Source of the DNA: Cenococcum geophilum
Lineage: Eukaryota
Assembly: GCA_050273025.1 (NCBI GenBank)
Contig: CP158635.1
Coordinates: forward strand, 20,336,001 to 20,400,000
Length of the DNA stretch: 64,000 nucleotides
Direction: 5' to 3'
Of the stretch, positions 16,921-64,000 are shown one piece after another. The notes beneath the pieces are model-generated. The model was not told the origin of the DNA and did not search any database. It saw only the letters and a program-made list of their open reading frames with translations. A program made the position numbers and the translations under genes. Positions within the stretch are counted from its first letter, which is position 1; every line of letters starts with the position of its first letter.

Positions 16921-17348
16921 ACGTACTTTACAAGCGAGTCGCGTATATAAGGGAGTCGCGCACTGCAAAACCCCACCAAAATCGTGATTTTTTGACCCTA
17001 GTAAAATCAACCAATTCTTAATAATAATTAATGCAAATTTAATAGCAGCCTATTAATGTAATAACTAACTTATATTAGAAGTATTGGAAATCTTATATAA
17101 GCGGAAGTAGGTTAAATAAGAAAGTGGGGGCGGAATTACCTTACTTTTTCTATTTAACTTACTTCCGCTTATATAAGATTTCCAATACTTCTAATATAAG
17201 TTAGTTATTACATTAATAGGCTGCTATTAAATTTGCATTAATTATTATTAAGAATTGGTTGATTTTACTAGGGTCAAAAAATCGCGATTTTGGTGGGGTT
17301 TTGTAGTGCGCGACTTCCTTATATACGCGACTCGCTTATAAAGTACGT
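16921..17348. mobile_element. Foldback MITE (428 bp) with ACGT termini and TA TSD, Fot1/pogo-like ends
   Basis: About 200-bp near-perfect inverted arms around a short loop. TA at 16919-16920 and 17349-17350. The host sequence GGTATAGGG is restored on removal. Confidence 0.9.
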
Positions 17349-29808: not shown

Positions 29809-32748
29809 CTACAATCTACTCTCAAAACCACCAGCGCCCCATCTCCTCTCTCCTGGCCAACTCGCCTCAGGCCACACACACCTCAGCGCGTCCCAGATGT
29901 GGGCAACATGCACAATCTGCAATCCCTCGAGCACTTCAATGGGTATATCCCTAATATCCTTCCTATTTCCCTCTGGCAATAACACCTTCTCCACCCCAGC
30001 CCTCAACGCCCCAATGAGTTTCTCCTTGATCCCACCAACCGGCAAGACTCTCCCCCTCAGGCTCACCTCACCAGTCATAGCCAAAGTTGGCGGGACCGGC
30101 TTTCCGCTGAACAGTGAGATAAGGGCAATAGTATGCGCCAGCCCAGCGCTAGGTCCGTCTTTGGGGATTGCGCCGCTTGGGCAATGCACATGGATACTGC
30201 GATTCTTCATGATATCTTCCTCTAGCGAGTGCGTTAATGCCAGTTCGTATGCATGAGCTTTCACCCATGTCAAGGCAACCTCTACACTCTCTTTCAGCAC
30301 ATCGCCCAGCTTTCCAGTCAGCTGTACGCGACCTGACCCAGGCATATCGGCGACTTCGATGAAGAGGATGCTACCTTGCCCACCAGTGCTGTAAGCGACC
30401 AGGCCAGTAACAACGCCGGGTCGTGAGTGCTGCTCCGCGAGTTCCTCACTGAAGCGCTCAATCCCGAGGATGGTATCGAGATCGGCTAGAGATACGACCG
30501 GGTTATATGCGGTTAGTGAATTTGTGTCCTTTGCGGAAGCATATTCAACGGCTTTAGAGCGGCAGACGGAGCCTATCTCGCGCTCGAGGTTGCGCACGCC
30601 AGACTCACGGGTGTAAGCAGCTATGATCTTGTCTAGAACCTCCGGAGTGAATTGCACAAGGTCAGAGGCAAGGCCATTAGTAGTGATTTGCTTGGGGAGC
30701 AGATGTCGGGTTGCAATGTGGCGTTTTTCGAGAGTAGTGTATCCGGATAGCTGGATCATCTCCATACGGTCAAGGAGAGGAGGCGGAATTGTATCAAGAG
30801 AGTTAGCGGTGGCGATGAAAAGTACTTTGCTTAAATCAACGGGAATATTGACATAATGATCGGTGAATGTGTGATTCTGCTCCGGATCTAACACTTCCAA
30901 CATCGCAGCGCTCGGATCGCCGTGGAAGTTGCTCATGCCTAGCTTATCAATTTCATCGAGCAGGAAGACTGGGTTTGCGACGCCAACCTTTTTCAGCCCA
31001 TTAACAATGAGTCCAGGCATCGCAGCTACGTACGTTCGTCGATGTCCGCGGATTTCAGCCTCGTCTCGTACACCACCGAGAGAGATGCGGTGGAATTTGC
31101 GTCCAAGTGCAGCGGCCACAGACTTAGCGAGACTTGTTTTGCCTGTTCCCGGAGGACCTACGAGGAGGAGAATAGGGGATTTGTCAACCATACGCTTCTT
31201 CTCTAGTAGTCTTAATTCTGCTTCCCCCGGCTCTTTTGAGGTGGGTTTCTCTGCTTCATCTTCCTTTTTCTCATTTTTAGCACCAGTAGCAGCAGCGGTC
31301 AACTGCTTAATTTGCAAATCGAGGTCAGCATTCGCCGCATGTTTCAATTTTAGGACCGCCAGATATTCCAGTAATCTTTTTTTGATCTTTTCCAGCCCAT
31401 AATGATCATCATCAAGCTGTTTCTTTGCCCGTGCCAAAGTGGCAGCATCGAGACGATCCTCCGTCGTCTTACTCCACGGAATCTCTGCTAGATTTTCTAG
31501 ATAATTTCGGCAAACCTGATACTCCGCCTGCGCCGGATTCATCTTCTGGAGTCTCTGTAATTCTCTTTGCGCCACTTTATCTGCCTCGGGTGACAGTTTC
31601 GCCTCCTCCAACCTCTTTTTTAATTCGTCCAGCTCATTGACTTCTTCACCGCCCTGATTTCCTCCAGGGAAGCCCAGGAAACCTGGAGGTATACCACCGG
31701 GGAGTCCATTCGTGCCTCTCCTAAGCAGTGCCTCTTGTTGCAATTTCCTTAGACGGTCTATATCAAATGTTCCGCTTGGTGAAGTGCTTGATGATACTGT
31801 GATCCTCGTGCTTCCCTGGATCCCTTGGATCTGCCTCTGCAACACCTCAATTACTCGTTCCAATCTATCCTTTACATCTAACGCAGCCAGTATTCTCAAT
31901 TTCTCCTCGTGTGTGCAGTCAACAACATTCGCCATGAAGTCTGCCAAAGAACCTGCTTCTCCAATGTTCTTGCGCGCGATATAGAGTTCTAGCCTACGTG
32001 CGACGATGGGGGATAGTGAGACGGATGGGCTGCGGGGAAGGATGGAGGAGAGGCGAACTAGTGCAAGGAGCTCGCGAGAAAGCTGCTTTAAATGCTGGAA
32101 GAGTTCTGCAACCTCCGTATTCGAGGCATTGACTACTTTCCAACCGTTAGCTTATCATAGCCAATGCCCATTCAAATTCTCCGTTACTATAGTTTTATCC
32201 CATTATGCATTCTATCATCCTCCCATATTCCTCGAATGCTCGGGCAGATATTATAGAAGGGATCACATACCTTGATCTTCGACCACCTCAATCATCCCCT
32301 CAAAATACGGTTTCTCCTGCAGTATCTTCTCAATCCTAAACCTGCCCAGCCCCTCTACTACCAACGCTAGTTCGCCCTGCCGCCGTCCCTGCACCCCAGA
32401 CACCTTTGCCACACACCCAAACCCAAAGAGATCTTTATTCTTCGCGACGACTGGATCACTCTCATAAACTGCCTTTCCCTTGGTTCTCGCATCCCCATCT
32501 CCTTCATCCAACAGCAGTTTCCCATTTTTGCTGACCAGAGTCGAGTTTAGCGGCACGCAACCGACCGTGATGGTGGCATCTGGTTTTGCGGTCGTAGCGC
32601 GTGAGTAGATCTTGGCGAGGACGGCGGTGACATCGGCACGGTTGGTGATGGGAACACGAAGTGTGACTCCTGGGAGAAGCACAGAGGGACTGGTAAGAGG
32701 GAGGATAGGCAAGACCTTGGGTTCGGCTTTCGAGGGGGACTTGCCCAT
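29809..32748 (-). CDS. LON2: Peroxisomal Lon protease (Lon protease homolog 2), 933 aa; exons 32748-32271 and 32132-29809
   Basis: LON N-domain start (LPILPL..VLLPG), Walker [10 protein letters not shown], Walker B FLLDEIDK, catalytic PKDGPSAG and GGIKEK, PTS1 SRL. The 138-nt intron GTATGT..GCTAAC..TAG joins the two ORFs in frame. Confidence 0.96.
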
Positions 32749-34315: not shown

Positions 34316-37300
34316 CAATTACTACCTAGTTACGGTATTAATATAAGAAGTTAAATAATATGCTACTAAAAGTAGCTACTACAACGCCATTAACGGCAGC
34401 AACTATATTGAGGTTAGGTAATAACACCAGTATAGTAGACACTAACTCACAGCAACCTATAATGGTTGGACAGTTATAAGAGATAGTTAACTAGTTAACA
34501 GAAAATAATGTAATGTTGGAAAATAGGATTAACGGGATAGGCGTAGTAAAGGTTAAGTTACCATCAATTAAAAGGTACTTAGGAGAGAGATTAAAGCTTA
34601 AAGGATTTCTAACGTAAATATACTTTAAGGTAGTACAGGAAGGAGTAAAGCTAGTAATACCTATAGATTAAATAGCATATATAGGATTGTTCTTAATAGG
34701 AAAAGCACTTAAATAGTTTAAGCCTTACCTAATAGAAATCTAGGCAAATGGAATAACAACTATAAATTAAGAGGTACGGTTTATATTCTTAAGCTAGAAT
34801 GGATTCGTTAAGCGACTTATATAAATATTTGGAGACCTAGAGGCAGTAACTATAGTAGAAAGAAAACTCTAAAATATTACGCAATGAACTTTAGTAATTA
34901 AGTATATAATATAGTTTTAGACGCTAGTAATATAAGTTAAGTGGAATAATAGGGCGCTTATAGCACAGTATAAATAGGGACTTAAGGCTAAAGTCTAGGA
35001 CGTAATTATTCTAATGGAAGATGTAGATACCCTAAGGGAATTAATAAATTAGGTAATTAAGATTAATAATTGGATCTACTAAAGGGAATAGGCTAAGAAA
35101 GGTTAGAATAGAGTTCTATAGTTGTATAAGGCGTAGAGTACGCAACGATAGAAGCTAAGTTAAAAACTATAGTATAGCGCAGAGCTAATAGACCTAAGTG
35201 GTATTAAAGAAGCCTATAAGAGATAGAGTAAATAACCGTAGAAACCTAGAGGATAAGGATTAAGTAATTAAAGGTCTAAGAAGCAGAGGCCAAATTAGGG
35301 ATCTTAACAGCAGAAGATATTTAGGCGGACTCTATAGCAAGAAAAATGGTTTAAAAAAGGAGCTTATATAAATTGCAGAAAATAAAGTTATTACGTTAAA
35401 GACTATAAAAGTGGGTAGAGTTACTATATAGTAAAAGGTATAAGACTAGTAGATAATATATACGTATAGAGGGATAATAATATACTACGAGGAATAAAAG
35501 AATGTTTAATTAGAAGTTTTACATTTTGTTATAATAACGCATACTAAATTTATAAGGACGCTAAGTATGGCGTAAGCTATTGGCTATAGGAGCTAGCACC
35601 TATAGGATATAGAGGAACTAATAAACTAGTTCGTAGATTGGATATTAAGGATAATAAATTTAACGTAGGCGAAACATTTTATAACGATAAGGTAATAAGA
35701 GCGGTTTACTAGGAACACGTAGCCATTAAAGATATTATACTAAAGGTAGAGGATAATTCCACTATAGAATAGGGAATATTAGTAGGGATTAAAACCCTAC
35801 TAAATATGATGTCTATCGCTTCGCGAGATGTAAGAGAAGTAGGATAGCGAACTACTTTGGTACTTAATAAAGGCAAAAGGCCAAAGGCTTAAGATTCTTA
35901 TAGCAAGATAAGAGACGACTAAGATTCTTAAGACGAGATAAGGTAAGCTTAAGGACCTATAATAGACGAAAACCAATAGAGTAGAGTAGTAGCTTAGTTT
36001 AAGAATATACGAATAAGTTTAAGATAGAGATTCCTATAGGTATAAGATTCTTAAGACGAGATAAGTGAGATTTAAGACTCTTAAGACGAGATAAAAATAC
36101 TAAGTAAGCCTAGTTAGACTAAGGCTGGAGCTAAGCTTAAGTTAGAAGCAAGCTTAGGATTAAAGAATCTAAGGGATTAAGAATTTGGAGTATAAATTAG
36201 GACACCTATAAGTAAGAGGCAAGGAGCTTTTTTATAGATTAAAGAATCTGCGGCGCAAATAGTAATTAGACTAGGAGACGAATATATAGACCTAGAAGAT
36301 TTACTAGTAGAACACGTTGTTTAGACTAAAGGTTGAAAAGTTAATACCAAGATTAAGAAGCAAGAAGACTTTAAGGATTAAAGCGTAAGGCGTAAACCAA
36401 AGGAAACTATAGAAGAGTTTAGATAAAGAATTATCGCATAGCAAGAATAGAAACTAGATAAGAGATCTAGCATATTAGGACGTATAAAGGATAGAGCGCT
36501 AGTATAAAGAATTACTAATAGGCCGAGAGTAGGCACACTAAGAGCTAAGTGGCTTACTAAACTGGAAGATAAAGAGGATCTAGGGATTTTAACTAGGTTC
36601 GAAGAACGATATATAAAGGGCTATTACGACGTAGTAATAAGAAGATACTTCCTTATGGATAAGCCGTATATACTTTAGCAGCTGTATTAAAAGTGGTATA
36701 GGCAAAGGCATAACGATGAGTAGGAAGATTTCTATATATGGTTAGATAAGAAAGTTATCTAGAACTACCCAATTATAGAAAAGGCTATAACTTACATTAA
36801 AGGAGCCTTAATTATAATGTTAAAGGATCTAAAGGAGCGTTTAGAGGACTAGAGAAGTAAGAGACGTATCTTAATACCTATAAATAAAGTCGTAATGTTT
36901 AGATTAGCACGATAGAGGTTTAAACTTAAGGATAAAAATAAGTTAAGAGTTAACCTAAAGTACCTAGCACACTATACGTTATTATGGATTGCGTGCGTGG
37001 ATAATATATATAAAATATATAAGAATTTAAAGAAAAAGAATCGGAAATACCCTATAAGGATATACTAGATAATAGACGAGCGATAGTATAGAAATGCTAA
37101 ATATATGTATAAATAGCATCTAGCAGAGGTCTAAAAGGAAGGAAGTTTAGTACTTTAACCAGAAAGATTCCTTATGGAAGAATGCTTAGACGGATAATAG
37201 TAGTAGAAATGCCTAGAAAATATGTATTTATAGTATATTAAAGATAAAAAGCAAACTAGGCATTAGCTAAAGAATAAGCTAAGTGTAATAGGATTAAGCA

Positions 37301-40300
37301 GCTAACAGTTAGGAAAAGTAGAGGCCTATGGGACTAGAGGGAGCTAGTAGTAGAGCCTTAGACCCTTAAAGGAATTTAAGGACGGCACCTAAATTTATAA
37401 GTTAAATGGCAAGATTAACAGTTTAAGGCATTAATAGATAGTAGAGCAATAAGGAACTATATCTTGCTAGTAGTAGTTAAAAGGATAGGATTACCTTATA
37501 GACAAAAGGAGAAACCTTACCTATTAGTTATAATTTTAGGAGATCTAATAACCTACGGAGGAGGGATTATTAATCTTAAAATAGGACCTATTTAGATAAC
37601 TATTAAAGGAAGACAAATTGAGATGTCTTTTAATATCCTACTATTAGGACGGGATAAGGTAGTATTAGGGATGCCTTAGTTACAGGAATATAATTTAAAG
37701 ATTAATTAGATTATAGGTTAAGTTAATATTAAAGATACTTAACGCCATAAGATGTAATAATAAGCTAAGTTGGTATAGTACTAAGTGGGAGCAACCTATA
37801 AGGAAACAGAAAAAGGATTAAGTTATATATTAAAGAGATACCATAAGTATAGTAAGAAACTATAGTTACCGGAAAATAAAAAGCTATTAGAGTATATAGT
37901 ATAGAACTATAAGATAGAATTAAAACTAGAAATAAGTTTAAAGTTCTTTCCAATCTATAAGCTTACTAAAGAAGAAGGTAAAGCACTAAAAGAGTTTATC
38001 TAGGAAAATCTATAAAAGGGATATATTAGACCATCGCAGTTATTAGTAGGATATCCAGTACTATTCGTACTAAAGAAAAATAGTAAACTAAGGCTGTGTA
38101 TTAATTATAGATAGTTAAACAGCATTACTAGGAAGAATAAATATCCTTTACCCTTAATTAGCGAAATCTAAGATAGAATAGGCAATACGTAAATCTTTAC
38201 GAAGATAGATCTAAGATGGGCGTACTATTAGATTAGGATTAAGGAAGGCGATAAATAAAAGGCAGCCTTTAGGTTAAAGGAAGGACTGTATAAACCATTA
38301 GTTATGCAATTTGGGCTTATAAACGCACTAGCAACGTTTTAGAAGCGTATTAATAATATATTAGGAGAACACTTAGATAAATTTATTATAGTATATCTTA
38401 ATAATATTATTATCTACTTAATAATTAAGGAAGAATACGGGGAATACGTTAAATGGGTTTTAAAGAGACTATAAGAAGAATAGATGCTAGTAGTAATTAA
38501 AAAATGCGAGTTCTTTACTAGGAAAACCGATTTCGTTAGATTTATTATTAAACTAGGCCAACTTAGCATAGATCTAAAGAAGATTAAGGCTATAGTAAAT
38601 TGGCAAAAACTAAAGAATATTACGTAGTTAAGATTGTTCTTAGGGTTTTATAATTACTATAGGAGGTTTATAGCATAGTGGTTAAAGGATATTAAGCCAT
38701 TTACGCGATTAATAAAGAAAGAAGAACTATAGGTATAGGGAGAGGAATAGAAGGAACTCTTTAAAAAAGTTAAAGAGTTATTTACCTAGGAGCCAGTTCT
38801 TAAGATCTATTAACTAGGTCTAGAGACGGTTATAAAGATAGATGTATTAGACTATGCACTAGGGGTATACTTTATATAAAAACATTAAGATGGATAGCAC
38901 CTAGTGGCATATTATAGTTAAAAGATAACACTACTAGAGTTAAACTATAACATCTACAACAAGGAGTTATTAGGTATAGTTATAGCATTAAAGGAATAGA
39001 GAGTATTCTTATAAGGTACAGAAAAACTATTTATAGTTAAGATAGATTATAAGAACCTAACAGGATTCCTAATAATAAAGGAACTTAACTAAAGATAGGT
39101 TAGATAGGCAGAGATGCTTATAGAATACTATTTTAAGATTTAGCATACTAAGGGTATAGATAATACGCGGGTAGATACTTTAAGCCGTAAAGCTAAACTT
39201 TAGAACAACGAAAAGCTATTAGGGGCTTTACTGCGAAAAGACACAGACGGATTAATTAGGTATAATTATCTAAAAATTATAGCCACTTAAGAAGATAATA
39301 AGTTAAAGAAAGTCTATAAGACACTAGAAAGCTTTTGGGTATAAAGGATTCTAAAAGCATAACTAGAAGATCTATAAATAGATATATATAAAAATTGAGA
39401 AGTAAAGTATATCCTAAGAAGTATAGCAGAGCAGTTTATAGAAGACTTCTATAAGGGACTAACTTAAGGACATAATGGAGCTATAGGCTTAGTGTTAAGA
39501 CTCTAGGAGGAGTACATTATTAACGGAATCTAGAGAATAGCTAGAAAAGTCACTAAAGAGTGTCTAAATTGCTAAAGGAATAAACTAATAAGGTATAAGC
39601 TATATAGAGGGCTATAACCTATTAAAATACTAAAGAGACCATAGGAGGTTATATCGTGGGACTTTATTATTAAGTTATTAAAGTTAAGAGATCCTATTAC
39701 CGGATAAGATTATAACGCGATTTTAGTGATAGTAGATAAGCTTATAAAGTGGGGATACTTTATAGTATATATAGAAGAAATCTTAGCGGAAGATATTACT
39801 AGAATCTATATTAAAGAAGTATTTATAAGATATAGAGTACTAAGTAAAATTATATTGGATAGAGATCTAAGATTCGTAGCAGTATTTTAGGAGGTATTCT
39901 TAGCGGAGTAAGGAGTTTAAGCAGCAACTTCTACCGCATATTATCCGCAGATAGATAGTTAAACGGAAAGACTAAATTAGATACTAGAGCAGTATCTAAG
40001 GCATTATATTAATTATATATAGAATAATTAGGTATTACTATTACTAGTTATATAGTTTGCATATAATATAACACCTTAAGAAGGAATAGGCATATTACTA
40101 TTTAAGGCGAATTATGGATATAAGCTAAGGATATTATTATTACTACGGCAAGTAAAGAAAACGAGTAGTATAGCTAAAGAAAGAATAAAGACGTTAATAA
40201 ATCTTTATATAGACCTTATAAAATTAGTAAAGAAAGTATAAGAGAGAATAAAAAAGTACTATAATGCTAAGAGATCTAAGGGACTAGATCTTAAGGAGGG

Positions 40301-48292: not shown

Positions 48293-51200
48293 TCACCCCC
48301 TCACACTACTCCCACATGCTCCGCCACCAAGCTGACTACTCATCAAGCTGGCTCCAAGATTCGGCGCCGGGCTAGCCTCACGCACCGTGATACTCGGCGG
48401 TAGTCCAATTATAGGAATGCTGCTGTCTAGCATCGGCGTCGCGTGAGGGCTGGGACTAGCGCGTTGCAAAAACGCCTCTTCGTAGAATATTTTCAGGGCC
48501 GTGGCGTCGGAGCAGAAGGCTTCGATTTCGTCTTTGATCTGTTCGGGCATCTGTAACTGCACTTGCGCCGCTTTCTCCGCTGATACATGTAATATCGAGG
48601 CGTCTGGAACGGGGTGGGAGAGCGGTGATGAGAAGGGAGAACGGTGAGAGGGCGTGTGGCGCTCTGTGGGGCCAGGGGTGGGTGTCGTGCCTGTCCCTCC
48701 TCTCCGCTCGTAGGAGTCCGCGGGCTTGTATTTTAGTGCGTCGCGGGATGCGGCAGCGCGGTTGTTACAGAGACGATTGGCGAGGAGGAGGAATGCGCCT
48801 TCGTCTGTGATTTGTGCAAGGAGCACGCCCGATTTGTGGATGTATTGCGTGTACTGGTAGTCCGGTCTGCCCCAAGAATACGTGACGTCTGCATCAGACG
48901 GGAAAGATGAGGCGGCTTCCATATCGAGTACGAAATTGAGCTTGCGGAGCAGCGCCTTGTGGTAGACGAATTTGTCGGACTTGATTTGTGGTGCGAAATG
49001 TGCCGAGTCGAAGTACTGCTCCGGTTGGGTTTTTGGTGGTGGTACAGCGAGGCGAATAATATAGGGCGAGCGGAAAGGATGCGCGTTGCTGATATTCGAC
49101 GCTTCTGCAATAGGCACTTCCACGAGTTTGAGTCCATATTTTTCAACCGAGGTCGCCCAGGTGACGATGGCGTCTTCTATGAGTTTAGCTGTAACATTCA
49201 TCCAATCAATACGAATATGGTAGCAGTTATCTGGGTTATGAAGGCGGTCATAGTGCAAATTAATAATCTCAGGTCGGTAAGATCGTTTTCGAGAATCAAC
49301 ATCGTAGCGCATGACTCGACTAAGAGTGACTGTACGTTTTGGGCTCCCAGCTCGAGTGGGCGTCTTCTCCCCTTCGCCGGACGCGTTAGAAGAGGTGCTA
49401 GTGTTCGGACGAGATCGAGAACTTCGTGTCGTAAGAGGTGAGGTTCTTGGCGCATCGGACATTGGGGTTGACGGTACTGATTTGTCTAATCGACGAGTTC
49501 CGAACCAACTGGTTCTTGAGTCTGGACGCGGAGCACGATATTCAGTAGCAATCTGGTAAAAGAAATTGCCATCTCGAAATTGGTGCTTCCTCTGCACGTG
49601 CTGGAAAAGACCTTTTTTCATAAGCTGATTTCCAAGGTCTACTGCTTCGTCTCTGGTCTCAATATTCTTAAAATTCTGAAGCAACCAACTGGTCAAATCA
49701 AATCCAAGGAAACAGTTGTAATGCAATCTCCAATGCCATCTTCGATCCAACATTTGTATGCCTTTCTCTCCTTGGAGATCCTCAGCGAGCTTCTTCATGT
49801 CGATGCTGGAGGTGTGATACTGTTCTGTTTCGGCGAAAAGCTGAGAAGAAAAATTGTTAGGATCTCCATCCGCGAGTAGTGCGCTGTCAGGGCCTGCTGC
49901 AACAATTGCAGAGGGATCCCTTGTTTGGTACTCGATTGCTAAGGGGTTTGGGTCTTTTCGCTTCCGAGCAGATTCTTGAAAATGACGTTCTTCCGGAGGA
50001 ATATAGCGATACCGCTGCCATATCTGGGTCAATTTTCGGATACCCTCCAGTCGAATTTCTTCTTCAGAATCTTCAGTGAGAAGAGGAAGTGGACGGCGAG
50101 TAACGCTTGGTAATTCGACTGGAATTAGCACAAAACGAGCGCGCCAAAAACGGAGGATATCCGAGAATTCATCGTCGTACCCAGCCAGAAATGAGTCGAT
50201 GAAATTCCAATTGTACTCTTTCCTTGGTGGCTTCAGAACGATATCGCGAGGATGATATTCATGCTCAAGGGCTGTACGAATGAGGGGTTTGTAAAACAAA
50301 GGCGAGTCTACGCCCGCGGAAGTTTCTAAAGCTGTAGTGGGCTTCCGATTGTATCGTTTTACTTCAACTTCGCCTCCAGCTACGCAAACGAGTTGATGTA
50401 TGGTGTTTCCGACCGACATAAAAACCATGTCGCCGTCGTTCGACATATAGTTCAAGTCAAAGATACTCTCAATATCGCGTTCCCTACTTCCCGTAAATTC
50501 CGCCACTGCAGTCCCGACAACAATCTGGAAGCCATGGGACAACCGGAATGCAATGAGTTCTCTAATCAAGGACTCACGAGATTTGGGAACATCAGTAGTG
50601 TCATCGTCCTCGTTCTGAGTAATCTTGTATGGGCTCTCGTGGTATTCAGTAACAAGTTGCTCTGCTGTTGGGAAATACTCATTTGTCAAGGGTACCGCAG
50701 CCGGTGAACATAGTGACTTCCACTTTATAGCTGACGCACGAAGGGGCTTTGGGAAAACATGCTGCCACCTGCGAAATTGGTTTGCAATACTCATGTTGTT
50801 CTTTTTGGGGTTGCATGGATTGACTAGTACTAGCCAAGGGGAGAGTGCACTAGTCGGTGACAACGTTCGTGGAATCTCCTGGGCGCCGCCACTGGATGAT
50901 AGATCTGGCTTTCGTCCAACTTGCTCTAGAAGCTCCCGGGAGCCTGCGAGAAGAAATAGTGAGCCAGGATCCTTGGATTCTAAACTTGGCTGGATTGTTT
51001 CCGATTTTCTTGGGCCAGGGACGTTTTTCATGGTGATCACAGATTTAGGAACGTTTTCGGGGACTGGAGAATGTGCGGAAGCTACACTAACACGCGATGC
51101 AGCCCTTATGGCAATAGGTTGTGAGGGCTTCTCAGTGTCGTGACTCCTGGTGCTCGCTAATTTTGCTGCAATAACACCTTTCTGGTTATTTTCAACTGTC

Positions 51201-54063
51201 AATCTGGCGGGCTCCACACTGCCGGAAGACACTGTAGCACTAGCAGTTGACTTAGAAGCTCCAAAGCCTAAGCCGCCGAAGCTAATTTGCCTTGATAGCC
51301 ACCTGGAAGGTCTCAAAGGAGGGTTGGTGTCGGAGACCGCACTACTAGTGCTGTGTGTCTCGGGAAGTGTGTCTTGAAAACGAGGTGACGTCGGGTGTTT
51401 TGTTATCACCTTCAATGAGGCAGAGTCTCCACGTGTGCCGTGTACGTCTTCTTTGAACGAAGTTGTGGTTACGCCTACTATACCCCGCTGATCTCCTAGG
51501 CTAGCTCGTGGATGAAAGACTGGTCGTCCCGGGGGATCTACTACTCTAACCGAAGAGGTCAGCCTGCGCTGTGGTGCCTCTGATAATCTGAAGCTTGAAT
51601 CACGAGACAAACTCTCGTGTGTTGTGTCAGCCTCGACTTCATTCGAGCGCTCTCTCATAAGTTGGTGAAAATTTGTATTAGGCGGAGGTCGAGCAGAATT
51701 GCCCAGAGAATGTGTGGGACTGCTGAAAGAAGCAGACAACAGTGAGCCTTGTGGCACTTGATGATAATTGGGAGCATCCTGGGCCAGCTCCCTTTTCTGC
51801 GATGCCTTACGATGCCTTTCTTCTACAGCTTTTTTATCAGCTAAAGGCCGGAATATGTGATCATCATAAGTTTTCATCCATGTGGATTGGAGGAAGCGAC
51901 CATGTCTGATATTATCTTCAGGTCGGGTTCGATCAGATGTAGTGATTTTCGTGGGAGATTTTGGGGCAGGAAACAACACTGGACGAACCATTAAACCCTG
52001 AGCAGTTTCGATTAAATCCTCATAATATCCTCGTAAGCCGTGGGGATACAAAGGGTTTTCTTGCATGTAGGGAATCGATATGTTGCTCAGCTCGTTTTCC
52101 ATAACGCCCATCATCTGAAGTTCGTACATTCTACACCTTAAAGCAAATCGTCTGTCTTTTTCATGTGGCTTTAAAAGCGATTTCCTGGTGCTACGGTGTC
52201 GAGACAGTTCTATTGTCTCACCCGATGGTCCAGACCAGAATGAAATGTCAAGCCAATGAGGCATTGCATAGCTCCATTCACCAGGGACCATATTGTCTAA
52301 GTTACCCATCAACGGACTTGGCGTACGTATTGCACTCCGTTTCGCAGGTGAGTACCCTATTAGTAGGCTAAAGTTTGGCTGGCTTTGCCTCGGCGTTTTT
52401 TCATCATGCTCGTCATATGAGCGTCCGTTTAGAGGACTCGTTGTTTCGATCCGACCAATAGCTTTTGCTACTGTGCTAGAATATAGGCGAGGATTCCGGT
52501 ACTTGAAAAGTGGTACAGAATGCAGCGGCATAGGTGATAAGCATACAAGATCGATACCGATACCAGTGCCGATGAGAGTGTCTGTGGTCAGCTTGAGCAT
52601 GTTATAGTCGACCTCATAGACACCAGTTCCTGCTGTTATAACAATAACAGATATGCCTGTGCGAACCAGGTCCCTATCGATATAATCCTTAGCAAACTGG
52701 GCGGACGCAAGGTTAATAGCCTCCAATACGTTTCCATTAGCTGCCATTGATGGCGTCCCAGCAATGATGAACTTTGATTGGGGGTCTTCGTTGGCATTTA
52801 TTTGACCGTTAGCTCCTTCATTCGCGTTCGTTTGTTGTGGTGTGAGTGAAACATCCCGAAGAAACGCACGAAATTCCTTCTTGAGTTGATAGAGGATATT
52901 GATCCAATCTCCGCTTGCCATTTCGCTTACTACTACGCGATAGAAGTCTCTAAACGGTCGGCCCTGGTTGCCCTTCTCATTGAAATGCGGGTGTTCGTCC
53001 GCAAGATTTTTCGTGGGTAAGGGATTTCCCACATATTCGAGCCTTGTGAAAAGGATTATGGTGACAAGATGCCGCGCATTGATCCTCATCCAGCGTTTGA
53101 ATAGTTCGGGAAGGAATCCATTTACGACCTTGTTAAACATGATCTCTCCAGCACCCTCCGTATCAAAGTCCCACATCTCCTTAGACATTTGGATAAACAA
53201 AATGTACCGTGCCGATTCGCTGCGAAATATAGGTTTTGTCATAGATGAGAAATAGCCTGAATGCATCGTCTGCCCATTGATGTATACATTTTTAACTGTT
53301 GCTTTGATCGTGCCCATGAAAAGCAATTTTTGGCCTTTGTAAACAGTTTTGTGACTTAGTTCAGAGACTGCCATTCGCCACATATCTGCTCTTGCGAGGT
53401 ATTCGTCTCGAAATGCTAGCTCAACATGGGATGCTGAATGAGTTTCTTCATCAGCCTGTGCGGGGAGATGTTAGCAGAACACAGGCAGCATAAAAAAAAG
53501 ATAGACAAATTAACATACTGTTGTTACTATTATCTGCATTCTATTACGGAATCCAAACACTTTTGCAATTGTTTCGGAAATGGAGACCTACGGCTATTAG
53601 TGAATACTAGGTGGTAGTAGAATAACGTGTGACGTACTTGTAAGTTAGGATGCTTAGCTTTCTGTTCTGGACTCATCGGCTTGGTGACAAACACATAAGA
53701 CTTCTGTGGGTCCACATCACGGCTGCCTTGTATAGCTACTCCATTCTCATCTAGGGTGATTGTAACTGAGCGTCTGCGAGCTTTCTTCGGTTGCGTTTCC
53801 GGGACAGGGTCTCTCTGTACCTCATCAACTTTTGATTGCCTTGGATCTACCGGGGAGGTCTTTAGAGCTGTCTGAAAGTCCCGGACTGCCGTTGTTTGCT
53901 TGAGCGCAAGGATCCGCGCTAAGGATCCAGAAGCAATGGGAAGCTCAACAAACTTATCAATATTGAAGACGACCTCGTCCCTCGAAAAGTTTTCGTCATG
54001 AGTCCAAAGAGCGCAGATTTTTTGCACCCTTGTGGGTCTGATATTGGCGGCGGATTTCGACAT
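48293..54063 (-). CDS. IML1: Vacuolar membrane-associated protein Iml1 (SEACIT/GATOR1 subunit, DEPDC5 orthologue), about 1885 aa; exons 54063-53638, 53587-53519, 53455-48293
   Basis: Motifs FRSESARYILFIQMSKEMWDFD, GIDLVCLSPMPLHSVPLFKY, WKSLCSPAAVPLT, DEP domain DRRWHWRLHYNCFLG, C-terminal YDRLHNPDNCYH. Introns of 50 and 63 nt have GT..CTAAY..AG and keep phase 0. Confidence 0.95.
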
Positions 54064-54575: not shown

Positions 54576-55246
54576 GAGGGTCTGAGAGCTTATGGGCGTC
54601 GCTTTGGTGAGAATGCAGCGTTAAAATGCAGCAAAAATCACCTTTTTCACTGCTGTATCTCAACTATTTTACAACGTCTAGTTATTATAAAAATACTACG
54701 AGGTAAGAGCTCTTTAGCTTCTCTATCTATTGCATTAAAAAATAACGTTGTAGCTATATTATATAAAATATTAGATATAGGCAGTCGGTCGCATTTATGG
54801 TCAGTATTTTGTCGCAATTTTGTTACAATTTTGCCTCACTGCTATACCTTACATACTTCTCTACATCTAATTATTTCTAAAATACTATAAGCTAAAAGCT
54901 CTTTATTTTCTCTATCGCCTCTACGTTACGGCAATATTATAGCTCTATTTTATAAGAAGTTAGATATAAGTAGTCGGTCGGTTTTAGTTAAAATCTACAG
55001 ATCCGTAAAAACATTCAAATTGAACATCTGACTTACGTTGTGCGACAATGTATCTCGCCCCCTAGTATTCTTAGTAGGGGGTTATAATTTATAAATATAT
55101 AGATATGATTACCTAAAGAATCTATTGCATCAATAAAATATATAATAGGTCTTGTGGTTAGGACGTCGCTCGTAAAAATACACAAAATTTGATTTTTAAA
55201 ACATTCAAATCTCACCAAAGCGACGCCCATAAGCTCTCAGACGCTC
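54576..55246. mobile_element. Non-autonomous TIR element (671 bp), probably Mutator-related, with two ~190-bp internal direct repeats
   Basis: About 37-bp TIR GAG(G/C)GTCTGAGAGCTTATGGGCGTCGCTTTGGTGAGA. Internal repeats at ~54645-54790 and ~54835-54980 both end in AGTCGGTCG. No TSD seen. Confidence 0.8.
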
Positions 55247-55598
55247 CATTCAGAATTTTTAAATATAGGGAGCAGATATGAGTGATTTTCTAGTGTGCCC
55301 GCCCCGTAACCAAGCACGTGCTGATCTAACTGAGTTCGGTTAAAATTCTGCTACAGAGCGTCTGATTCATGAGATAACTTGCGCGGGGTGCAGCTGAGCA
55401 GGGTCACGGAAAAGTTGAACAGGGTCACCGATGGGGGTCGGCGAAAGCTGAACGGGGTCACCAATGGAGCGCCGGAAAAAGGTCGGTAGGGTCACACTTT
55501 TACCCATACAAAACACGCATTGGTAGCCATATTTAACTTAAGCGACCGCACAAACTAAAATATTCAGGGCATATGCTACGTATACGCAGGCATACAGG

Positions 55599-55640
<42 letters not shown>
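55599..55640. repeat. (AT)n microsatellite with one interruption
   Basis: Directly visible. Confidence 0.95.
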
Positions 55641-55689
55641 TTACGCATATTATAGTATATAAATAATAAGTGAAAACTATACTAAAGCA

Positions 55690-58600
55690 AATAAGAGTAT
55701 AGCAGGATAGTTAAACGGCCTACTAGTTAGTATGTATAACTATATGCTACGCATATACTAAGTATACGTAGGCATTCTAGAGCTTACCTAATATTAAATA
55801 TAAAGATGATAGTTCTTAAGATAATATAATCGGCGGAGAGGGTATTAAAGATAAAGAGGGTAAGAAGGAGGATAAGAAGGGTAAGGGTTAAGATAGTATG
55901 TAATAGCGGCTTCCATTTTATATAGGTCTCTCTAAGGTAAACTATATCCAACTTTATACATAAGCTATATATATACTTAGAATAGCTAGGGAATACTCTG
56001 AGACTATAGAGCACTTATTAGCTCTAACGGCAAGTATTAAGTTATTGTCTAAAAGGTAATAGACTATATTATAATGCCAGAATATCTAGCAACTAGGAAA
56101 GAAGGAATTATATACTTTATCTATAAAGCAATACCTCTACTATCTATAGATGCAGATAAAAAAATAGTATGTGAGGTTATTAATTAGTATATATTAAAGG
56201 TAAGCAATACATATATAAAGCATATACTGTATTTATATATCTAGCAGATTTAATTCTTATTCCATTAAACTGGTAGCCCTAGGATTATATAACTACAGCT
56301 TCTTAGTAAAAACAATTAGGAGAGTAAAAAAGCATTCCACTAAGCGTTTAAATACAGCGGCATTAGATACTGCAAGTATACCTATAAGGATATGCTCCGC
56401 ATATGCTTAGTATATAATAGGGTTAAGCTTAAATCAATTAACGACCTTTGAAAGCGTAGTAGTTGTCCATACCAGGCAGTAGAGATTAATAAAATGCTTA
56501 AGTAAAGCATAGAGAAGTAAGCATTATCTATATATATTAGGTATATACTTATAATATACAGCTACTACCACAGTATTCTATAATTATGGCGGCAGTGTAT
56601 CTACCCTAGTACATAAGAATGTGTATATAGTAAAAGCAGACTAACGATGTTTTTTTGGCATGGAGTATGTATATATCCGGCATATGCGTAATATATGCTT
56701 ATTATATATAGGTAGAGTTTATCGGTTATTCTAGCAGTAGTGATACTAAACTATAGTATACTACCTGGCCTTTATCATCAACAACTGCCCAGGTAGATAT
56801 TCAATACCTTTGGTTACTTATTAAATATGGAGTTTAGGAAGTTAAATGAGAATGTACCTATATTGGATATATAACGTTAAAGCGAAAATATTATAGTATA
56901 TAATATATATATCGTGCATACGCTATATATATACTAAGCCGACGTAGGATTCGACCACCCGTAAGGCTAAGGTAGGGTAGTGGGCCGAACATACGGTGTA
57001 TAGTTAGACTGCTATATTCCTATTAATATAGCACAGTATCCTTATATTTACCTTATTACACGAAATTCTTATATATATTATCTACTATATCTAATAAAGC
57101 TACTAATTGACCTTGCTAATAATGTAGTTAAAGTAATAAAGTAGGTAGATGTCCTAAGCCTTACTACACGTATACTCCGTATATGCATAGTATATGCGAA
57201 TGAAACTACTTACCATTATATAGGTCGATTTATCCTATTGCCGCAGTACTATATTTTATATAGGAAGTATAGAACGCAGACACTACGTGCCGTATATAGT
57301 AGTCTTAATATTAAGGATCGAATTACTGCTCTAATTCGGAAGGAAAGGATGCTATAATTCCTAGAGGGGATGGCATATATAGGTAAGTATAGGTTAGATA
57401 TACGCCAAGCATATACAGAGGCTAAGCGTAGTAGGTATACTACGTGAGTTCTCTATTAATCAATATAAAGAGAACACCGAGCAATGGATTCGGGCAATTT
57501 ATAACTTTAATAACGAGTATTTCCTTATCGTATATTATACGTATACGCAAGCTAAAGCATTTTAACGCGTAATATATATCGAAATAGACCTATTATTTAA
57601 GATAGTTTAAGGTAAAACGAATCTATTCTTAATTATAGGATAGGACAAGAATTCTAAACGTATGTATACCCTATGCCATATATATGCTATATATGAGCTA
57701 AATACTTATAAAAATCAAGGTATAGGTATACGCCTTTCTTAACCTAGAAACACGTGCTATATACATAAAGATATTTTAGCTAGTATTTAAGGTATTAGGT
57801 AATACTGCTTAATTATCTATACAATTTGCATATATTTATAGAACTAGACTTTGCACTGCTATAGTTAATATGTGTAAGAAATAAGCTGGTGGTGAGTATA
57901 CGCTCTATATATGCTCTGTATATGCTAAGCATATGCTTATAATATATAGGCTTTGGAGATTACCTATATATAATTAACCCATCCCGTAAATGGGACGAAC
58001 ACCTTTAGTATATACTTATATTTTGCCTAGTATACGTTAAACAAAACTTTATAAAGCGCTTTTAAACTTATAAAGTAAGATATATTATAGAGCAGATATA
58101 GGAAGCAGAGACAAAGTAGAAACTAACAGCGCGTATATAAAGTATATACACACTGCATCCGGAGCTTACGTCTTAGATAAACAACAAAAAGAAACTATAG
58201 ATACTAGCCGGGCTTATAAAAGAAAAGTCAAAGGTTCCTTACAAGTAGTGGGCGTATATACGGAAGCATACTGGAATTAGTAAAAGTAGTCACTTTTAAA
58301 ATAATAACTTTACTGGTTGAAAGTTATACATACTTGCCGCAGTACTACAGTAACGGTATATGCTCTACATATGCTCTGCATATTCTAATATTTTAGTATA
58401 GGCTTAAACTTTATATATAAGAAATATTCAATCTATAAGAGCTATATAAAGAGACGGGAATAGATAATATATAGAAAAATCAGAGTAACTTAAAGCGAAT
58501 AGCAGTATAGCTATAGAAATAATATATGCATATATAAAGCATATATAAAGTATATACTAAGCTTAAGCAGCGCAGAAACAGCAGAAATTAGCTAAGCGGC

Positions 58601-58990
58601 GAGCTAGAAATCCTAGCCTAAATCTTCCTTAAAATCCTTAGAATCCATTTAATACCCCTAAGCCTACTATATTTAGTAGCCAGATTATCTCGCAGATAAG
58701 TACAGTAGATAACGATATTGCATTAGTATTGGATATGTCGCGTGTATCCACCGCATATACAACGGAGATGCCACCACCACTATCGCGAAGTTAAACACCC
58801 CGGACTATAGGCAAGAGGTATAGGTCTTACCTATCTACAAAGGAGCTAGAAAAGGAGGCATATACACTACGTATAGAAAATATAAAGCAACGAATTAACA
58901 AATTAAAATAAGCTAAAGACGCATATAATAAAGCAAAAGAACTAGCAGAGCTTAAGAAGTGGGCATAAGAGCATAATGTTAGCATATAGG
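55690..58990 (+). pseudogene. Intron-rich MULE-type DDE transposase pseudogene (boundaries approximate)
   Basis: De-RIP motifs EMDLSFK (57581-57601), VDMCKKQA (~57864-57887), FCLVHVKRNF (CxxH, ~58021-58050), GISESSH (~58273-58293). Several GTAAG/GTGAG/GTATG...AG intron-like segments. Confidence 0.65.
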
Positions 58991-61216
58991 GCGCATATAC
59001 ACAGTATATGTATAGAAAGTATTATATAGAGTTCCATAATAAATAAAGAATTAATTAATATGGGCCTATCGCCCTATGCCCTATATTAGGCATATGCCTA
59101 GCCTACCTACTAAATAAACCCTAATAAAACTCCGACTATATATAATGCATACTATATACTATATGCGTAGCGTACAGGCCTAGTATATACCAGGACTTAT
59201 AGCTTGGGACTTGCGCGGTAAAGGTAAGTTAAGTAGCAGGTTCCGCCCGCGGCTTATATAGAGCATAAGTATAATATACACAACAAAAGGAACTAAACTT
59301 ACTAGAGCTCTTACCTCTACCACAACGGGCCGTTGGCTTTTTACTCGCTAGTGCTAAACATTAGCTGTATATATATAGGGTATATGCAAGACAAGCTTAC
59401 CCCTTTAGCGGCGGGTGGACGGCAAAAGGGACTCCTCGCGGTCGCCTAGCGGGGTCAGGCCGCGCTATGTATATAGTTAGCGTATGCCAAATATATGTAG
59501 GTGAAATACTAACCCTATATTTTAAGCCAGTAGAGGGAGTGAACGGGCCAACGCGCTGTTTCTCTCTTATTAGCATACGCCTAGCATAAGCACGCGTTAA
59601 CCTATAGTTAGTTAAAGATAATAGGGGTTTATATATGCGAAGTATATACGCGTATAAGCTAGCAATATAACCAAGTGGTGGTTTTGGTGATGTATATATA
59701 GGGCCTATATAAAGTCGGACTTTACTAGTCTCCTAGATATAAAGACAAGCGTTCGTTTCTAAATCGGGTAGTAGTCCTAGTAGTAGCCGTGCTTATTCCT
59801 CGCATACGCTACCCTTAGGCCTATAAGCACCCTTAGGTCTAAAATTAAACTTAGGGGGAATAAGTATATATATAGATAGATAGATAGATATATTAGGGTA
59901 TAGTGCGTATATATAGAAGCGATACTAGTGCTCTTACCTTGTAATAGAATTACCTGCCAAATCGGGTAGTAAACCCCTAGTCTTAAGCACTATATTTAGT
60001 TAGCTTAGGCTAGATATATACTAAGTATAGAGTAAGCATACGCGATTAAAGTGCAGGCGTTTATATACTCTAAAATTCTTGACCCTAAAGGGCCACGGCT
60101 GTGTGCGGTGTTAGTACTGTATATATAGTGCATATATATAACCTACCTAGGCTTATATAGGTACCTAGCATCCTATTAGCCACTAAAGAGAACAAAACGC
60201 TTTAGGGCGCTATGTTATATTAGCGTTGTATATACATAGCATATACTAGGTATATACTTCTCCCCTATAATCAACTCCGCAGCCAACATATTAGTAGTAG
60301 GAGGATTAGTTACTACATATAGTAAGCATATACCTTTAATAAACTGCATAGTAATACATACAGGCACCGCTATACTTATTGCGGACATAGCGGCGATACT
60401 ACAACTCTATTAGTAAGACGTAGATACTATATATATGCAGAACATACGCTAGGCTAGGCCGTAAAGACCCGGCCGCACATCTACGTGCCATTTACTGTAA
60501 TATCATAGCTATATTTATTGTCAGCATATACTATATATAAGGTGTGGATATGCGACCTATACTATGGAGTTAATAGTAGACAGTGTGGAGGCAGGGTTAG
60601 GTGGATCTAGTTTACGCTTAGTATATACGCACTCTTTACGTAGAGCCTTTCTGGCACCTACTCGCGTTATCTTAAATAGTTATAGCTAGGGCTGTATAAG
60701 GTTAGCATATGCTATAGGTATATGGCTCTAGATTTACATACGCCTTCTACCTACTACTACTGCGGCGGCGCGTGCTTTATCTACTATAAGCATATACTTT
60801 GCATACGCGTTCTCTATAACTAACCTAGTATTACCTAGTTAGGGTTAGGATTAGGAATCGGGCCTATATACTTTTATTAATATATACTTCTTCTAGGTAT
60901 ATATAAAGCATATACTCACCATAATAGTACCTAAAGGCGCTAGGGTTAGTAGCACTGGCCACCTATAGATTATTAAAGTCTATAATTGTGAGGCTTATAG
61001 TAAGCATAGGCTAAGCGTATACTAAAGTAAAATTGAGATATTAATATTGCCCTAGCCAAATGTTAGCATATATAGCGCTTATACATAGGCTATATAGTAT
61101 ATACTTATGGCGTATGCTGCGGTATTATAGAGAAGTTCTAGTATAACCGCTGTTGTTATGAATATATAACGCGTATGCACGGTCCATGTTTTAATAACTT
61201 AGCTCGCTTACTTTAT

Positions 61217-61695
61217 ACGGTAGCTAGTGATATGCATATACCCCGCATATGCAAGCCACGCGTCATTTAATATTCACGATTTATTATATACCGTCAATTA
61301 TCAAGCACTATAAAATTTTATTAAAAATTAAATTTATTTTATATATGCGCTATATATATAGAAACTTAGTAGGGTTAGAAGCTGAGCATAGTTAGAAAGG
61401 TTCTAACCCTGTTAAACTTTGTAACCTTACCAAGTTTTTCCGTGACCTCGCCGAGCTGTAAGCCTATAACTTGCGTAGAAGTCTCGGGGCTTACAGCTCG
61501 GCGAGGTTATAGAAAAACTCCCATGCTCAGCTTCTAACCCTGCTGAGTTTCTGCATATGCAGCGCATATACAAAATAAATTTAATTTTTAATAAAATTTC
61601 ATAGTGCTTAATAATTAATGGTATATAATAAATCGTAAATATTAAATAACGTGTGGCTTGCATATACGGGGCATATACACCCCACTAGCTACTAT
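61217..61695. mobile_element. Hairpin MITE (~479 bp) with a nested internal hairpin; present only in the left palindrome arm
   Basis: Outer arms ~61217-61390 and 61522-61695; inner arms ~61433-61464 and 61488-61519. The empty site TTACTTTATCCC is visible on the opposite arm. Confidence 0.88.
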
Positions 61696-61697
61696 AT

Positions 61698-62369
61698 CCC
61701 TTGCACCAATATCATCCTTAGAGGTATAGCCCATGCACGCGATTAAGAACATTAACTTCCTCGCCTTAAGTTATAAATAGATAACTTTATTAATTAAATA
61801 TACCGCTAAAATAGTATGTAATTATATATCCAATAATATAGATCTTATATAGCCTACTTAATATACTATTTCCAAAAATTTGGTTATAAAAAGCCACCGC
61901 TTTAGGCTCTAACACTTCCTCCTTTAAAGAGCTTTAGTAATACGGCAGAATAACTTACCGCCTATATATGCACCTTATTAATTAGTGCGTATAGGCCACA
62001 GCTTTAAGGACGTAACTTATTAGTATAAGGGATAACCCTTATACTAATAAGTTGCGTCCTTAAAGCTGTGGCCTGTGCGCACTAATTAATAAGGTGCATA
62101 TATAGGCGGTAAGTTATTCTGCCGTATTACTAAAGCTCTTTAAAGGAGGAAGTGTTAGAGCCTAAAGCGGTGGCTTTTTATAACCAAATTTTTGGAAATA
62201 GTATATTAAGTAGGCTATATAAGATCTATATTATTGGATATATAATTACATACTATTTTAGCGGTATATTTAATTAATAAAGTTATCTATTTACAACTTA
62301 AGGCGAGGAAGTTAATGTTCTTAATCGCGTGCACGGGCCATACCTCTAAGGATGATATCGGTGTAAGGG
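61698..62369. mobile_element. Two inverted copies of a 334-bp MITE with CCCTTGCACCGATA-type TIRs (61698-62031 and 62036-62369)
   Basis: Each unit begins CCCTTRYACYRATA and ends TATYRGTRYAAGGG. AT flanks three of the four ends. Confidence 0.78.
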
Positions 62370-64000
62370 ATAAAGTAAGTAAGCTAAGTTATTAAAACAT
62401 AGACCGTATATACGCGTCGCATATCTATAACAACAGCGGTTACACCAGAACTTCTCTATAATACCGCAGTATACACTATAAGTATATACTATATAGCCTA
62501 TATATAAGCGCTATATATACTAACATCTAGCTAGGGCAACATTAATATTTTAATTTTACTTTGGTATACGCTTAGCCTATATTTACTATAAGCCTTATAA
62601 TCGTAAACTTTAATAATCTATAGGTGGCCGGTGCCACTAACCCTAGCGCCTTTAGGTACTACTATAGTAAGTATATACTTCGTATATACCTAGAAGAAGC
62701 ATATATTAATAGAAGTATATAGGCCCGATCCCTAACCTTAACCCTAACTAGGTAACACTAGGTTAGTTATAGAGAACGCGTATATAAAGTATATGCTTAC
62801 AGTAAACAAAGCACGCGCCGCCGCCGTAGTAGTAGGTAAAAGGCGTATATAAATCTAGAGCCGTATATTTATAGCATATACTAACCTTATACAGCCCCAG
62901 CTATAACTATCTAAGATAACATAAGTAGGTGCTAGAAAGGCTTTACGTAAAGAGTGTGTATATACTAAGCGTAAACTAAATCTACTTAACCCTACCTCCG
63001 TACTATCTGCTATTAACTCTATAGTATAGGTTGTATATCTATACCTTATATATAGCATATACTAACAATAAATATAGCTATAATATTATAGTAAATGGCA
63101 TATAAATATACGGCTAGGTCTTTACGGCTTAGCCTAGCGTATATTCCATATATATACAGTATCTATATCCTACTAATAGAGTTATAGTACTGCCGCTATA
63201 TCTGTAATAAGTATAGCAGTACCCATATATATTACTATACAGTTTACTAAAGGCATATACTTACTATATACAGTAATTAACCCTTCTACTACTAACATGT
63301 TAGCTACAGAGTTAATTATAGGGGAGAAGTATATACCTAGTATATACTATATATATACAACGCTAATATAACGCAGCGCCCTAAAGCGTTTTATTCTCTC
63401 CAATAGCTAGTAGGATACTAAGTACCTATATAAGCCTAGGTAGGTTATATATATATACTATATATACAGTACTAACACTATATATAACTGTAGCCCTTTA
63501 GGGTTAAGAATTTTAGAGTATATAGACGCCTATACTTTAATCGCGTATACTTACTCTATACTTAATATATATCTAGCCTAAGCTAACTAGATACAGTACT
63601 TAAGACTAGGGGTTTACCACCTAATTTGGTAGGCAATTCTATCGCGAGGTAAAAGCATTAGTGTCGCTTCTATATATATATACTATACCCTAATATATCT
63701 ATCTATCTATATATATATATACTTATTCCCCCTAAGTTTAATTTTAAACCTAAGGGTACTTATAGGCCTAAGGGTAGCGTATGCAAGAAATAAGTACGGC
63801 TACTACTAGGACTACTACCCGATTTAGAAATAAACGCTCGTTTTTATATCTAGGAGACTAGCAAAGTCCGACTTTATATAAGCCCTATATATACATTACT
63901 AAAACCACTACTTAGTTATATTGCTAGCTTATACGCGTATATACTTCGTATATACAAACCCCTATTGTCTTCTACTAACCATAGGTTAACGCGTGCTTAT

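Follow-up and report, generated by a model that had tools for sequence, protein, structure and literature searches.

A 672-bp palindrome in the 64,000-nucleotide stretch of Cenococcum geophilum DNA analysed here (the window) is best explained as a tail-to-tail dimer of a 334-bp non-autonomous piggyBac-related element, which lies as an AT-flanked insertion in an older, RIP-degraded palindromic repeat and may have moved there as a unit; we put the probability of this reading at about 0.5. The data below establish the anatomy of the pair, its AT duplication and the older palindrome that surrounds it, and they support a real family behind the element. The axis had originally been suggested to be a possible fossil of a transposon-end hairpin. 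This idea is attractive but unsupported, and the sequence of the locus contradicts the simplest numerical expectations that follow from it. A piggyBac-type family that duplicates AT is both the firmer and the more unusual result.

Results

The palindrome consists of two mirror copies of one element

The window is a fungal-type mosaic, with two islands of ordinary base composition set among AT-rich blocks (GC 0.26-0.38). Long open frames lie in the two islands (29809-32151, minus strand, 780 aa, and 48293-53470, minus strand, 1725 aa); judged by eye, the first resembles a Lon-type protease and the second a large vacuolar-membrane (IML1-like) protein. Much of the window is filled by a large repeat family (1-4542 against 35234-39775, with more copies near 12-14, 16-18 and 21-25 kb), the copies of which are inverted, RIP-diverged and 76-89% alike. 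This family is the host of the piggyBac-type element described below and of a 432-bp foldback element (16919-17350; 205-nt arms 97% alike, 22-nt loop). The foldback is missing from the paralogous host-repeat copies near 1019-1044, 13200, 24742 and 38733, and an arm end similar to its own is found in a metagenome contig (L002, ~1840-1890). The features on which the analysis centres are listed in Table 1.

Table 1. Coordinates of the two palindromes and of the piggyBac-type element in the window.
Feature	Position	Strand	Remarks
RIP-degraded piggyBac-type element	18040-21162	+	AT-CCCTT...AAGGG-AT borders; ends CCCTTAACCC...GGGTTAAGGG
Left arm of the older RIP-degraded palindromic repeat	59586-61432	.	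may extend further left; its partner leaves the window at 64000
Centre of the older palindrome	61433-61519	.	32-nt inverted repeat 61433-61464 / 61488-61519, 23-nt loop 61465-61487
Inner right arm of the older palindrome	61520-61695	.	severed from the remainder by the pair; from inverted-repeat pairing
AT, left copy of the pair's 2-bp target duplication	61696-61697	.	from the single AT at the mirror site and the X6 joint
U, 334-bp non-autonomous element	61698-62031	+	left end CCCTTGCACCAATA..., right end ...TATTAGTATAAGGG
ATAA spacer separating the right ends of U and U'; axis of their palindrome	62032-62035	.	from the sequence and the inverted-repeat search
U', mirror copy of U	62036-62369	-	differs from inverted U at 8/334 positions
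AT, right copy of the pair's 2-bp target duplication	62370-62371	.	from the sequence and the X6 joint
Outer right arm of the older palindrome	62372-64000	.	arm resumes at 62370 (AT) and leaves the window

An inverted-repeat search paired 61690-62031 with 62036-62377 as 342-nt arms that are 97% complementary across a 4-nt gap. At the axis (62017-62050), the sequence reads ...TATAAGGG with its last nucleotide at 62031, then ATAA, then CCCTTATA... with its first nucleotide at 62036, exactly the succession of an AAGGG end, ATAA and a CCCTT start that had been described. Both U and U' start with CCCTT and finish with AAGGG, so all four ends are present, and the two copies are joined right end to right end (AAGGG-ATAA-CCCTT). 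The outer borders of the pair are likewise exact element ends, AT-CCCTT...(672 bp)...AAGGG-AT, with one target duplication around the whole. Furthermore, the right flank opens (62370-62373) with ATAA, the same letters as the spacer.

U and U' diverge at 8 of 334 positions (97.6% alike), and all eight differences are transitions, with no transversions. The RIP index TpA/ApT is 1.41 for U and 1.42 for U', compared to 0.71 for a gene taken for comparison. The left ends in the pair, CCCTTGCACCAATA and CCCTTACACCGATA, are each one transition away from their common form, and the right end is CCCTTATACTAATA in both arms, where other copies of the family read ...GCACC.... As single-stranded DNA, the 672 nt of U and U' fold into a single hairpin of -372 kcal/mol, against -62 +/- 4 kcal/mol for 20 shuffles. 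A RIP-tolerant end motif, CCCTTRYACYRATA, matched the window five times against 0.83 expected, and four of these five matches are accounted for by the termini of U and U'. BLAST of U against the 64-kb window found no third copy, the next match being 47 nt at 77%. The original prediction had spoken of the same 334-bp MITE on both sides of the axis; this is right in that both arms are mirror copies, whereas within the window, which has no third copy, it can refer to the two arms only.

Sequence evidence supports U as a member of a dispersed terminal-inverted-repeat family

The two ends of U align with each other over ~55 nt with one 4-nt indel, and their differences are mostly transitions. When this alignment was compared with 2000 shuffles, its purine/pyrimidine score was reached by none and its exact score by 1.75%. 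The ends are asymmetric in that the right one has four extra nucleotides between its terminal and sub-terminal blocks. We rest the inverted repeat of U on this alignment and the shuffle test rather than on a screen for CCCTT/AAGGG pairs: some 27 pairs, mostly spurious, pass 16/20 in purine/pyrimidine code, and the screen alone was rejected as proof.

Of 24 sequencing runs listed, four contained at least half of the sampled words, all of them from one sample, possibly the source. Read-derived contigs of at least 90% likeness over the 3-kb stretch around the pair numbered 614 in run X1, 767 in X5 (a root metagenome run), 523 in X6 and 526 in X8. These contigs cover the 3-kb stretch entirely, and all of its parts therefore belong to repeat families.

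Ends of the U family stand in other contexts, some of them next to AT, in runs X5, X6 and X8, where they are seen as contig pieces and not as a complete 334-bp monomer. In X6, 116 nt of other sequence are followed by 61695-61800, that is, by the left end in another context beside (T)AT, and a contig from the same run carries the un-mutated 14-mer followed by internal sequence of the right end (61711 to 62053, 2 letters between). Two X8 contigs reach 61864 (AT at 61863-61864) and then pass directly into the family end TCCTTGCACCAATA..., and in contigs from X8 and X5 the final 33-34 nt before 62067/62070 are exchanged for a variant right end with ...TTGCAC.... Together with the end match of ~55 nt and the shuffle test, these ends elsewhere support the earlier view of U as a genuine terminal-inverted-repeat element, and suggest that it belongs to a dispersed family.

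Inside U, a stretch of 178 nt (61765-61942) is exchanged for 11-16 nt in other copies (contigs from X5, X6 and X1); it is either an extra internal piece in U or marks deletion derivatives elsewhere. A metagenome scan with a RIP-tolerant 30-nt pattern gave three loci, among them L002, a 74% relative of 61703-61791 only (89 nt); two of the three loci were discarded as chance matches.

A piggyBac-type element in the window duplicates AT

The element at 18040-21162 was picked from the CCCTT/AAGGG pair screen as having AT on both sides. One of its six translated frames (X at stops) matches the Pfam family PF13843 (DDE_Tnp_1_7) with an E of 9.3e-22 and 78 bits against a cut-off of 22, and the element matches the Trichoplusia piggyBac transposase (PDB 6x67) with an E of 1.3e-11. 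An asparagine, a RIP-type change, is aligned to the first catalytic aspartate of piggyBac, at a position that we take to be D268. This residue of the piggyBac transposase is named in PMC7351741, and PF13843 elements are known from Pezizomycotina (PMC5751038). One CCCTT-ended element in the window thus encodes a piggyBac-type transposase, the type of enzyme that the original prediction had invoked.

The host repeat of this element offers three empty paralogous sites (352/353, 13885/13886 and 39423/39424), and at all three the flank alignments overlap by exactly 2 nt, AT. Thus, the element duplicates AT (2 bp) and not TTAA; the TTAA within its end CCCTTAACCC belongs to the element itself. It is single copy in the 64-kb window, and a 33-nt inverted repeat, 97% alike, lies inside it (19238-19270 / 20086-20118). 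U and this element share AT-CCCTT; beyond these 5 nt, their ends resemble each other only weakly, with a p of 0.02-0.05 against shuffles in purine/pyrimidine code. Its ends have an extra stretch at the same place as the 4-nt asymmetry in the right end of U. An end-motif search of the 64-kb window found no autonomous partner with U's own 14-nt end, and the element at 18040-21162 is the sole in-window candidate for a relative of the enzyme that moved U.

The TTAA target duplication, a hallmark of piggyBac, is absent both at the U/U' pair (AT/AT) and at 18040-21162 (AT), and the family behind U appears to be piggyBac-related and yet to duplicate AT instead of TTAA. The 2-bp AT duplication originally noted for CCCTT-ended elements agrees with the three empty paralogues and with a read contig from X6 described below. 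A survey of 157 piggyBac-like elements has TTAA throughout, sets rare "TSDs" of ATAG, TTAT, ATAT and ATAA aside as mutations and gives the first C of the ends as the conserved one (PMC5381638). Our literature searches turned up no description of an AT-duplicating piggyBac-type lineage.

The pair is probably an insertion in an older palindromic repeat

Around the pair, 61523-61695 joined to 62370-64000 aligns, when reverse-complemented, with 59586-61389 over 1804 nt without a gap, at 88.2%, so that the arms measure 1.8 kb or more. The 212 mismatches, nearly all transitions, are distributed as 190/1631 in the outer and 22/173 in the inner arms; the outer arms alone (59586-61216 with 62370-64000) pair over 1631 nt at 88%. 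The central 32-nt inverted repeat has three mismatches, all transitions, and its axis is without CCCTT/AAGGG. No Pfam family was found in the six frames of 55000-61216 (stops as X). The older palindromic repeat is multi-copy in the read contigs, the depth of which suggests ~10-40 copy equivalents. At the mirror site of the pair in the left arm (61215-61216) there is one AT, and an X6 contig joins 61695 straight to 62370, skipping 674 nt, with 2 letters that fit either side.

The raw sequence fits two mirror readings. When the pair and one AT are deleted, 1804 nt pair ungapped around the 23-nt loop 61465-61487; when 61217-61697 (481 bp) is deleted instead, ungapped pairing extends over 1965 nt around ATAA. 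In the second case, a break at the right end of U would have led to a hairpin-capped chromosome end and from there to a giant palindrome centred on ATAA, with arms of host sequence plus U of at least 1965 nt, and the 481-bp foldback would have been inserted later beside the left end of U. The pairing of these 1965 nt runs to the end of the window, and 195 of its 198 mismatches are transitions. The 481-bp piece, too, has AT on both sides, and the spacer fits an AT duplication plus 2 nt of flank.

Four lines of evidence favour the first reading, in which the pair is the insertion. First, divergence is uniform over the older palindrome (11.6% in the outer and 12.7% in the inner arms, p=0.71), in contrast to 2.4% between U and U' (p=1e-8). 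A giant palindrome on ATAA would have to accommodate a leap from 2.4% in U to 11.6% in the adjoining arms, together with a supposedly younger 481-bp piece whose own arms are 12.7% apart. Second, the 481-bp piece would have had to hit precisely the 2-bp duplication at the left end of U, whereas insertion of the pair needs no coincidence. Third, the junction 61216/61217 recurs in diverged copies of the repeat, namely in X8 record 28 (61076-61287, 20 differences) and in an X5 joint (61210 to 61659, 22 letters between). Fourth, the X6 joint from 61695 to 62370 lacks U-U', and none of the 14 joints listed from four runs lacks the 481-bp piece (61216 to 61698). We therefore regard it as likely that U and U' entered the right arm of the older palindrome as one discrete insertion, flanked by AT. 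A giant palindrome that grew from a capped break is distinctly improbable, and the weight that we give it overlaps with that given to a hairpin origin below.

RIP requires ~400 bp and 80% identity (PMC4522978). The low divergence between U and U' fits their 334-nt arms, since these fall below about the length that RIP needs. Sparing of the palindrome centre by RIP was considered and rejected, as the older palindrome shows the same level of divergence in its inner and its outer arms.

The axis of the pair is present in sequencing reads

Near-perfect palindromes with tiny spacers are a known class of long-read library artefact, and the U/U' pair has the same look. It is nevertheless highly improbable that the pair is an assembly or cloning product such as a chimeric palindromic read. 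A 148-nt contig from X1 spans 61960-62107, across the axis, with 0 differences and a depth of 77. By comparison, the depth in X1 is 181 for 61832-61989, a stretch shared by the two arms, and 68-102 for the other six X1 pieces listed. The axis is thus single-copy and the arms are double in the X1 reads, which argues against an assembly artefact; moreover, the arms differ by eight RIP-type transitions, unlike random errors. The axis is therefore present in the reads of X1, which possibly come from the source sample, and it is in this sense backed by reads rather than by an independent isolate.

Movement as a unit and double insertion as possible origins of the pair

In the reading that we prefer, the monomer would have carried RIP-type changes already before it was doubled, because both arms share the RIP-type composition and three transitions in the right-end repeat. 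The outer left ends would still have been intact when the dimer formed, and on these two good left ends the dimer may have moved to its present site as a unit. After its arrival, it would have acquired eight further RIP transitions, its 334-nt arms being under the ~400-nt length for efficient RIP. Two good left ends and one AT duplication surrounding the whole are the expected look of a transposed unit, and from these we infer movement as a unit, to which we give slightly less than even odds. Several points weigh against it. A Trichoplusia piggyBac with two left ends (LE35/LE35) shows neither excision nor integration in cells with the wild-type enzyme (PMC7351741), and by analogy a left-left dimer may be a poor substrate. 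Furthermore, no second copy of the dimer was seen: the X1 axis contig is single-copy, and no axis is bridged in the X5, X6 and X8 contigs shown. Finally, the identity of the ATAA spacer with the right flank would be a coincidence, with an estimated chance of ~0.08 given AT.

The main rival is double insertion on the spot, which we nonetheless consider unlikely. Here, U' would have inserted first and duplicated ATAA (4 bp), and a copy would then have entered the AT of the left ATAA and duplicated AT, resulting in U-ATAA-U'. The mirror arm and the X6 contig define a 16-nt site as it was before insertion; starting from it, this order of events yields exactly the observed sequence, and it accounts for the spacer being the same ATAA as the right flank. 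piggyBac-derived MITEs do form arrays (PMC2872659), and a local hop, for example from a sister chromatid, would explain the RIP-type changes that the arms have in common. However, double insertion needs two duplication lengths in one family, where the element at 18040-21162 makes 2 bp, as comparison with three empty paralogues shows; it needs a second landing within 2 nt of the first, and a monomer that was still mobile with three transitions in its right-end repeat.

Two other routes to the pair were rejected. If two excised right ends had been joined after their 2-nt overhangs were filled, the spacer should be ATAT and not ATAA. A later T-to-A change of ATAT is unlikely, because U and U' show 0 transversions over 334 nt and the whole 1965-nt pairing shows 3. 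Template switching during replication and foldback priming were dismissed as the main cause: U' is bordered on either side by an element end, and suitable inverted microhomology is lacking at the 3' end.

The hairpin hypothesis

In piggyBac transposition, the 3'-OH attacks the opposite strand four nucleotides into the flank, so that the loop of the hairpin is the flank tetranucleotide; the offset equals the 4-nt stagger of integration and is set by the geometry of the enzyme, and the hairpin oligonucleotide reads ...TAGGG-TTAA-CCCTA... (PMC7351741). The statement from which the original prediction started, that the piggyBac end hairpin holds four flanking nucleotides, is in agreement with this source. 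The proposal is that a transposase hairpin on the right end was left unopened and was replicated into an end-spacer-end palindrome, at the present site or, if the dimer moved afterwards, at an earlier one. The axis has the shape of the piggyBac intermediate, GGG plus 4 nt plus CCC (PMC7351741), and the U family appears to be piggyBac-related. Moreover, the spacer starts with AT, as expected for a loop made of the AT duplication and two flank bases. The fact that U' begins and stops exactly at element ends also speaks for a cut by transposase rather than a random break.

The letters at the axis do not follow this expectation. Because the piggyBac hairpin offset equals the target stagger, a family with a 2-bp duplication should leave a loop of 2 nt (AAGGG-AT-CCCTT), and 4 nt are present; the original prediction had itself cautioned that a 4-nt loop does not simply match a 2-bp AT duplication, and this caution was justified. 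If the event happened here, if the pair is the insertion and if the loop is supplied by the strand opposite to the transferred end, a 4-nt loop formed in situ with the present flanks would read TTAT with U as the original copy and ATAT with U' as the original, against the ATAA present. A replicated capped end should, moreover, carry the palindrome into the flank. In the favoured reading, the pair instead stops cleanly at AT between non-mirror flanks. Its outer borders are exact ends with an AT duplication, which is the behaviour of a unit that was inserted rather than of a broken end that was capped. The check proposed for the hypothesis, run within the window, gave one of three long close palindromes with a CCCTT/AAGGG axis, and spacers of 4, 22 and 23 nt in place of a constant length.

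With nothing specific in its favour, and with a misfit in both the length and the letters of the spacer, we consider an unopened and replicated single-end hairpin quite unlikely. The idea is compatible with an origin at an earlier locus, where a spacer of AT plus 2 nt would fit, or with the giant palindrome on ATAA. A fuller version, which is very unlikely, would be that in an AT-stagger, piggyBac-related lineage a hairpin on a RIP-damaged right end was never opened, was replicated to a tail-to-tail dimer and became mobile again on the intact left ends. Aberrant sister-chromatid transposition, named originally as the alternative, was rejected as well: its products, derived by hand for a 2- or 4-nt stagger, have AT, TTAT or similar as the spacer and a wrong right flank.

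Discussion

The U/U' pair resembles several known systems without matching any of them fully. With the hairpin intermediate of Trichoplusia ni piggyBac (PMC7351741) it shares CCC.../...GGG ends and the order of end, 4 nt and inverted end, and the window contains a transposase from the Pfam family to which that of piggyBac belongs. It differs in that the duplication is 2 bp of AT and not TTAA, the ATAA spacer is not self-complementary, and the palindrome is double-stranded and genomic, known here from sequence, rather than a capped end. The CMITEs of corals (PMC2872659) are likewise short, non-coding derivatives with piggyBac-type ends that occur as multimers, and piggyBac relatives with long inverted arms and sub-terminal inverted repeats of up to 400 bp are on record (PMC5381638). 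In contrast to our pair, which is inverted, has a 4-nt spacer and duplicates AT, the elements of both reports are flanked by TTAA and the arrays are described as tandem.

The pair also shares traits with elements and palindromes of other kinds: it has exact ends at both outer borders, a single AT duplication and an empty-site joint that skips 674 nt, as would be looked for in a foldback-type element. Foldback and double elements, such as maize double Ds and Drosophila FB, are inverted copies or ends of a cut-and-paste element that act as one and have long inverted arms. They belong to other superfamilies (hAT and FB), and in double Ds one copy lies inside the other, whereas U and U' lie end to end. 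In yeast and ciliates, palindromes arise from hairpin-capped double-strand breaks; these have a near-zero spacer at the axis, like U/U', and extend outward into all flanking DNA, whereas U/U' stops, in the favoured reading, exactly at the left ends. Maize Mu killer is an inverted transposon duplication that silences its family via hairpin RNA; U/U' is an inverted transposon duplication that could similarly form a long hairpin, known from DNA alone.

Inverted transposon dimers and foldback elements are already known, and on its own a single locus such as this one is a curiosity. The AT duplication reaches further. TTAA is treated as the hallmark of the piggyBac superfamily and is tied to the geometry of the enzyme (PMC7351741), and an AT-duplicating family departs from it. 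Moreover, the rare "TSDs" ATAG, TTAT, ATAT and ATAA (PMC5381638) have the look of a 2-bp AT duplication read as 4 nt. If a hairpin was indeed left unopened and the resulting dimer then became mobile, the locus would preserve the hairpin step in nature and would document how a damaged element can rescue itself. The dimer, with its damaged inner and intact outer ends, is a testable case of how non-autonomous elements may regain mobility, and a testable possible source of hairpin RNA against its own family.
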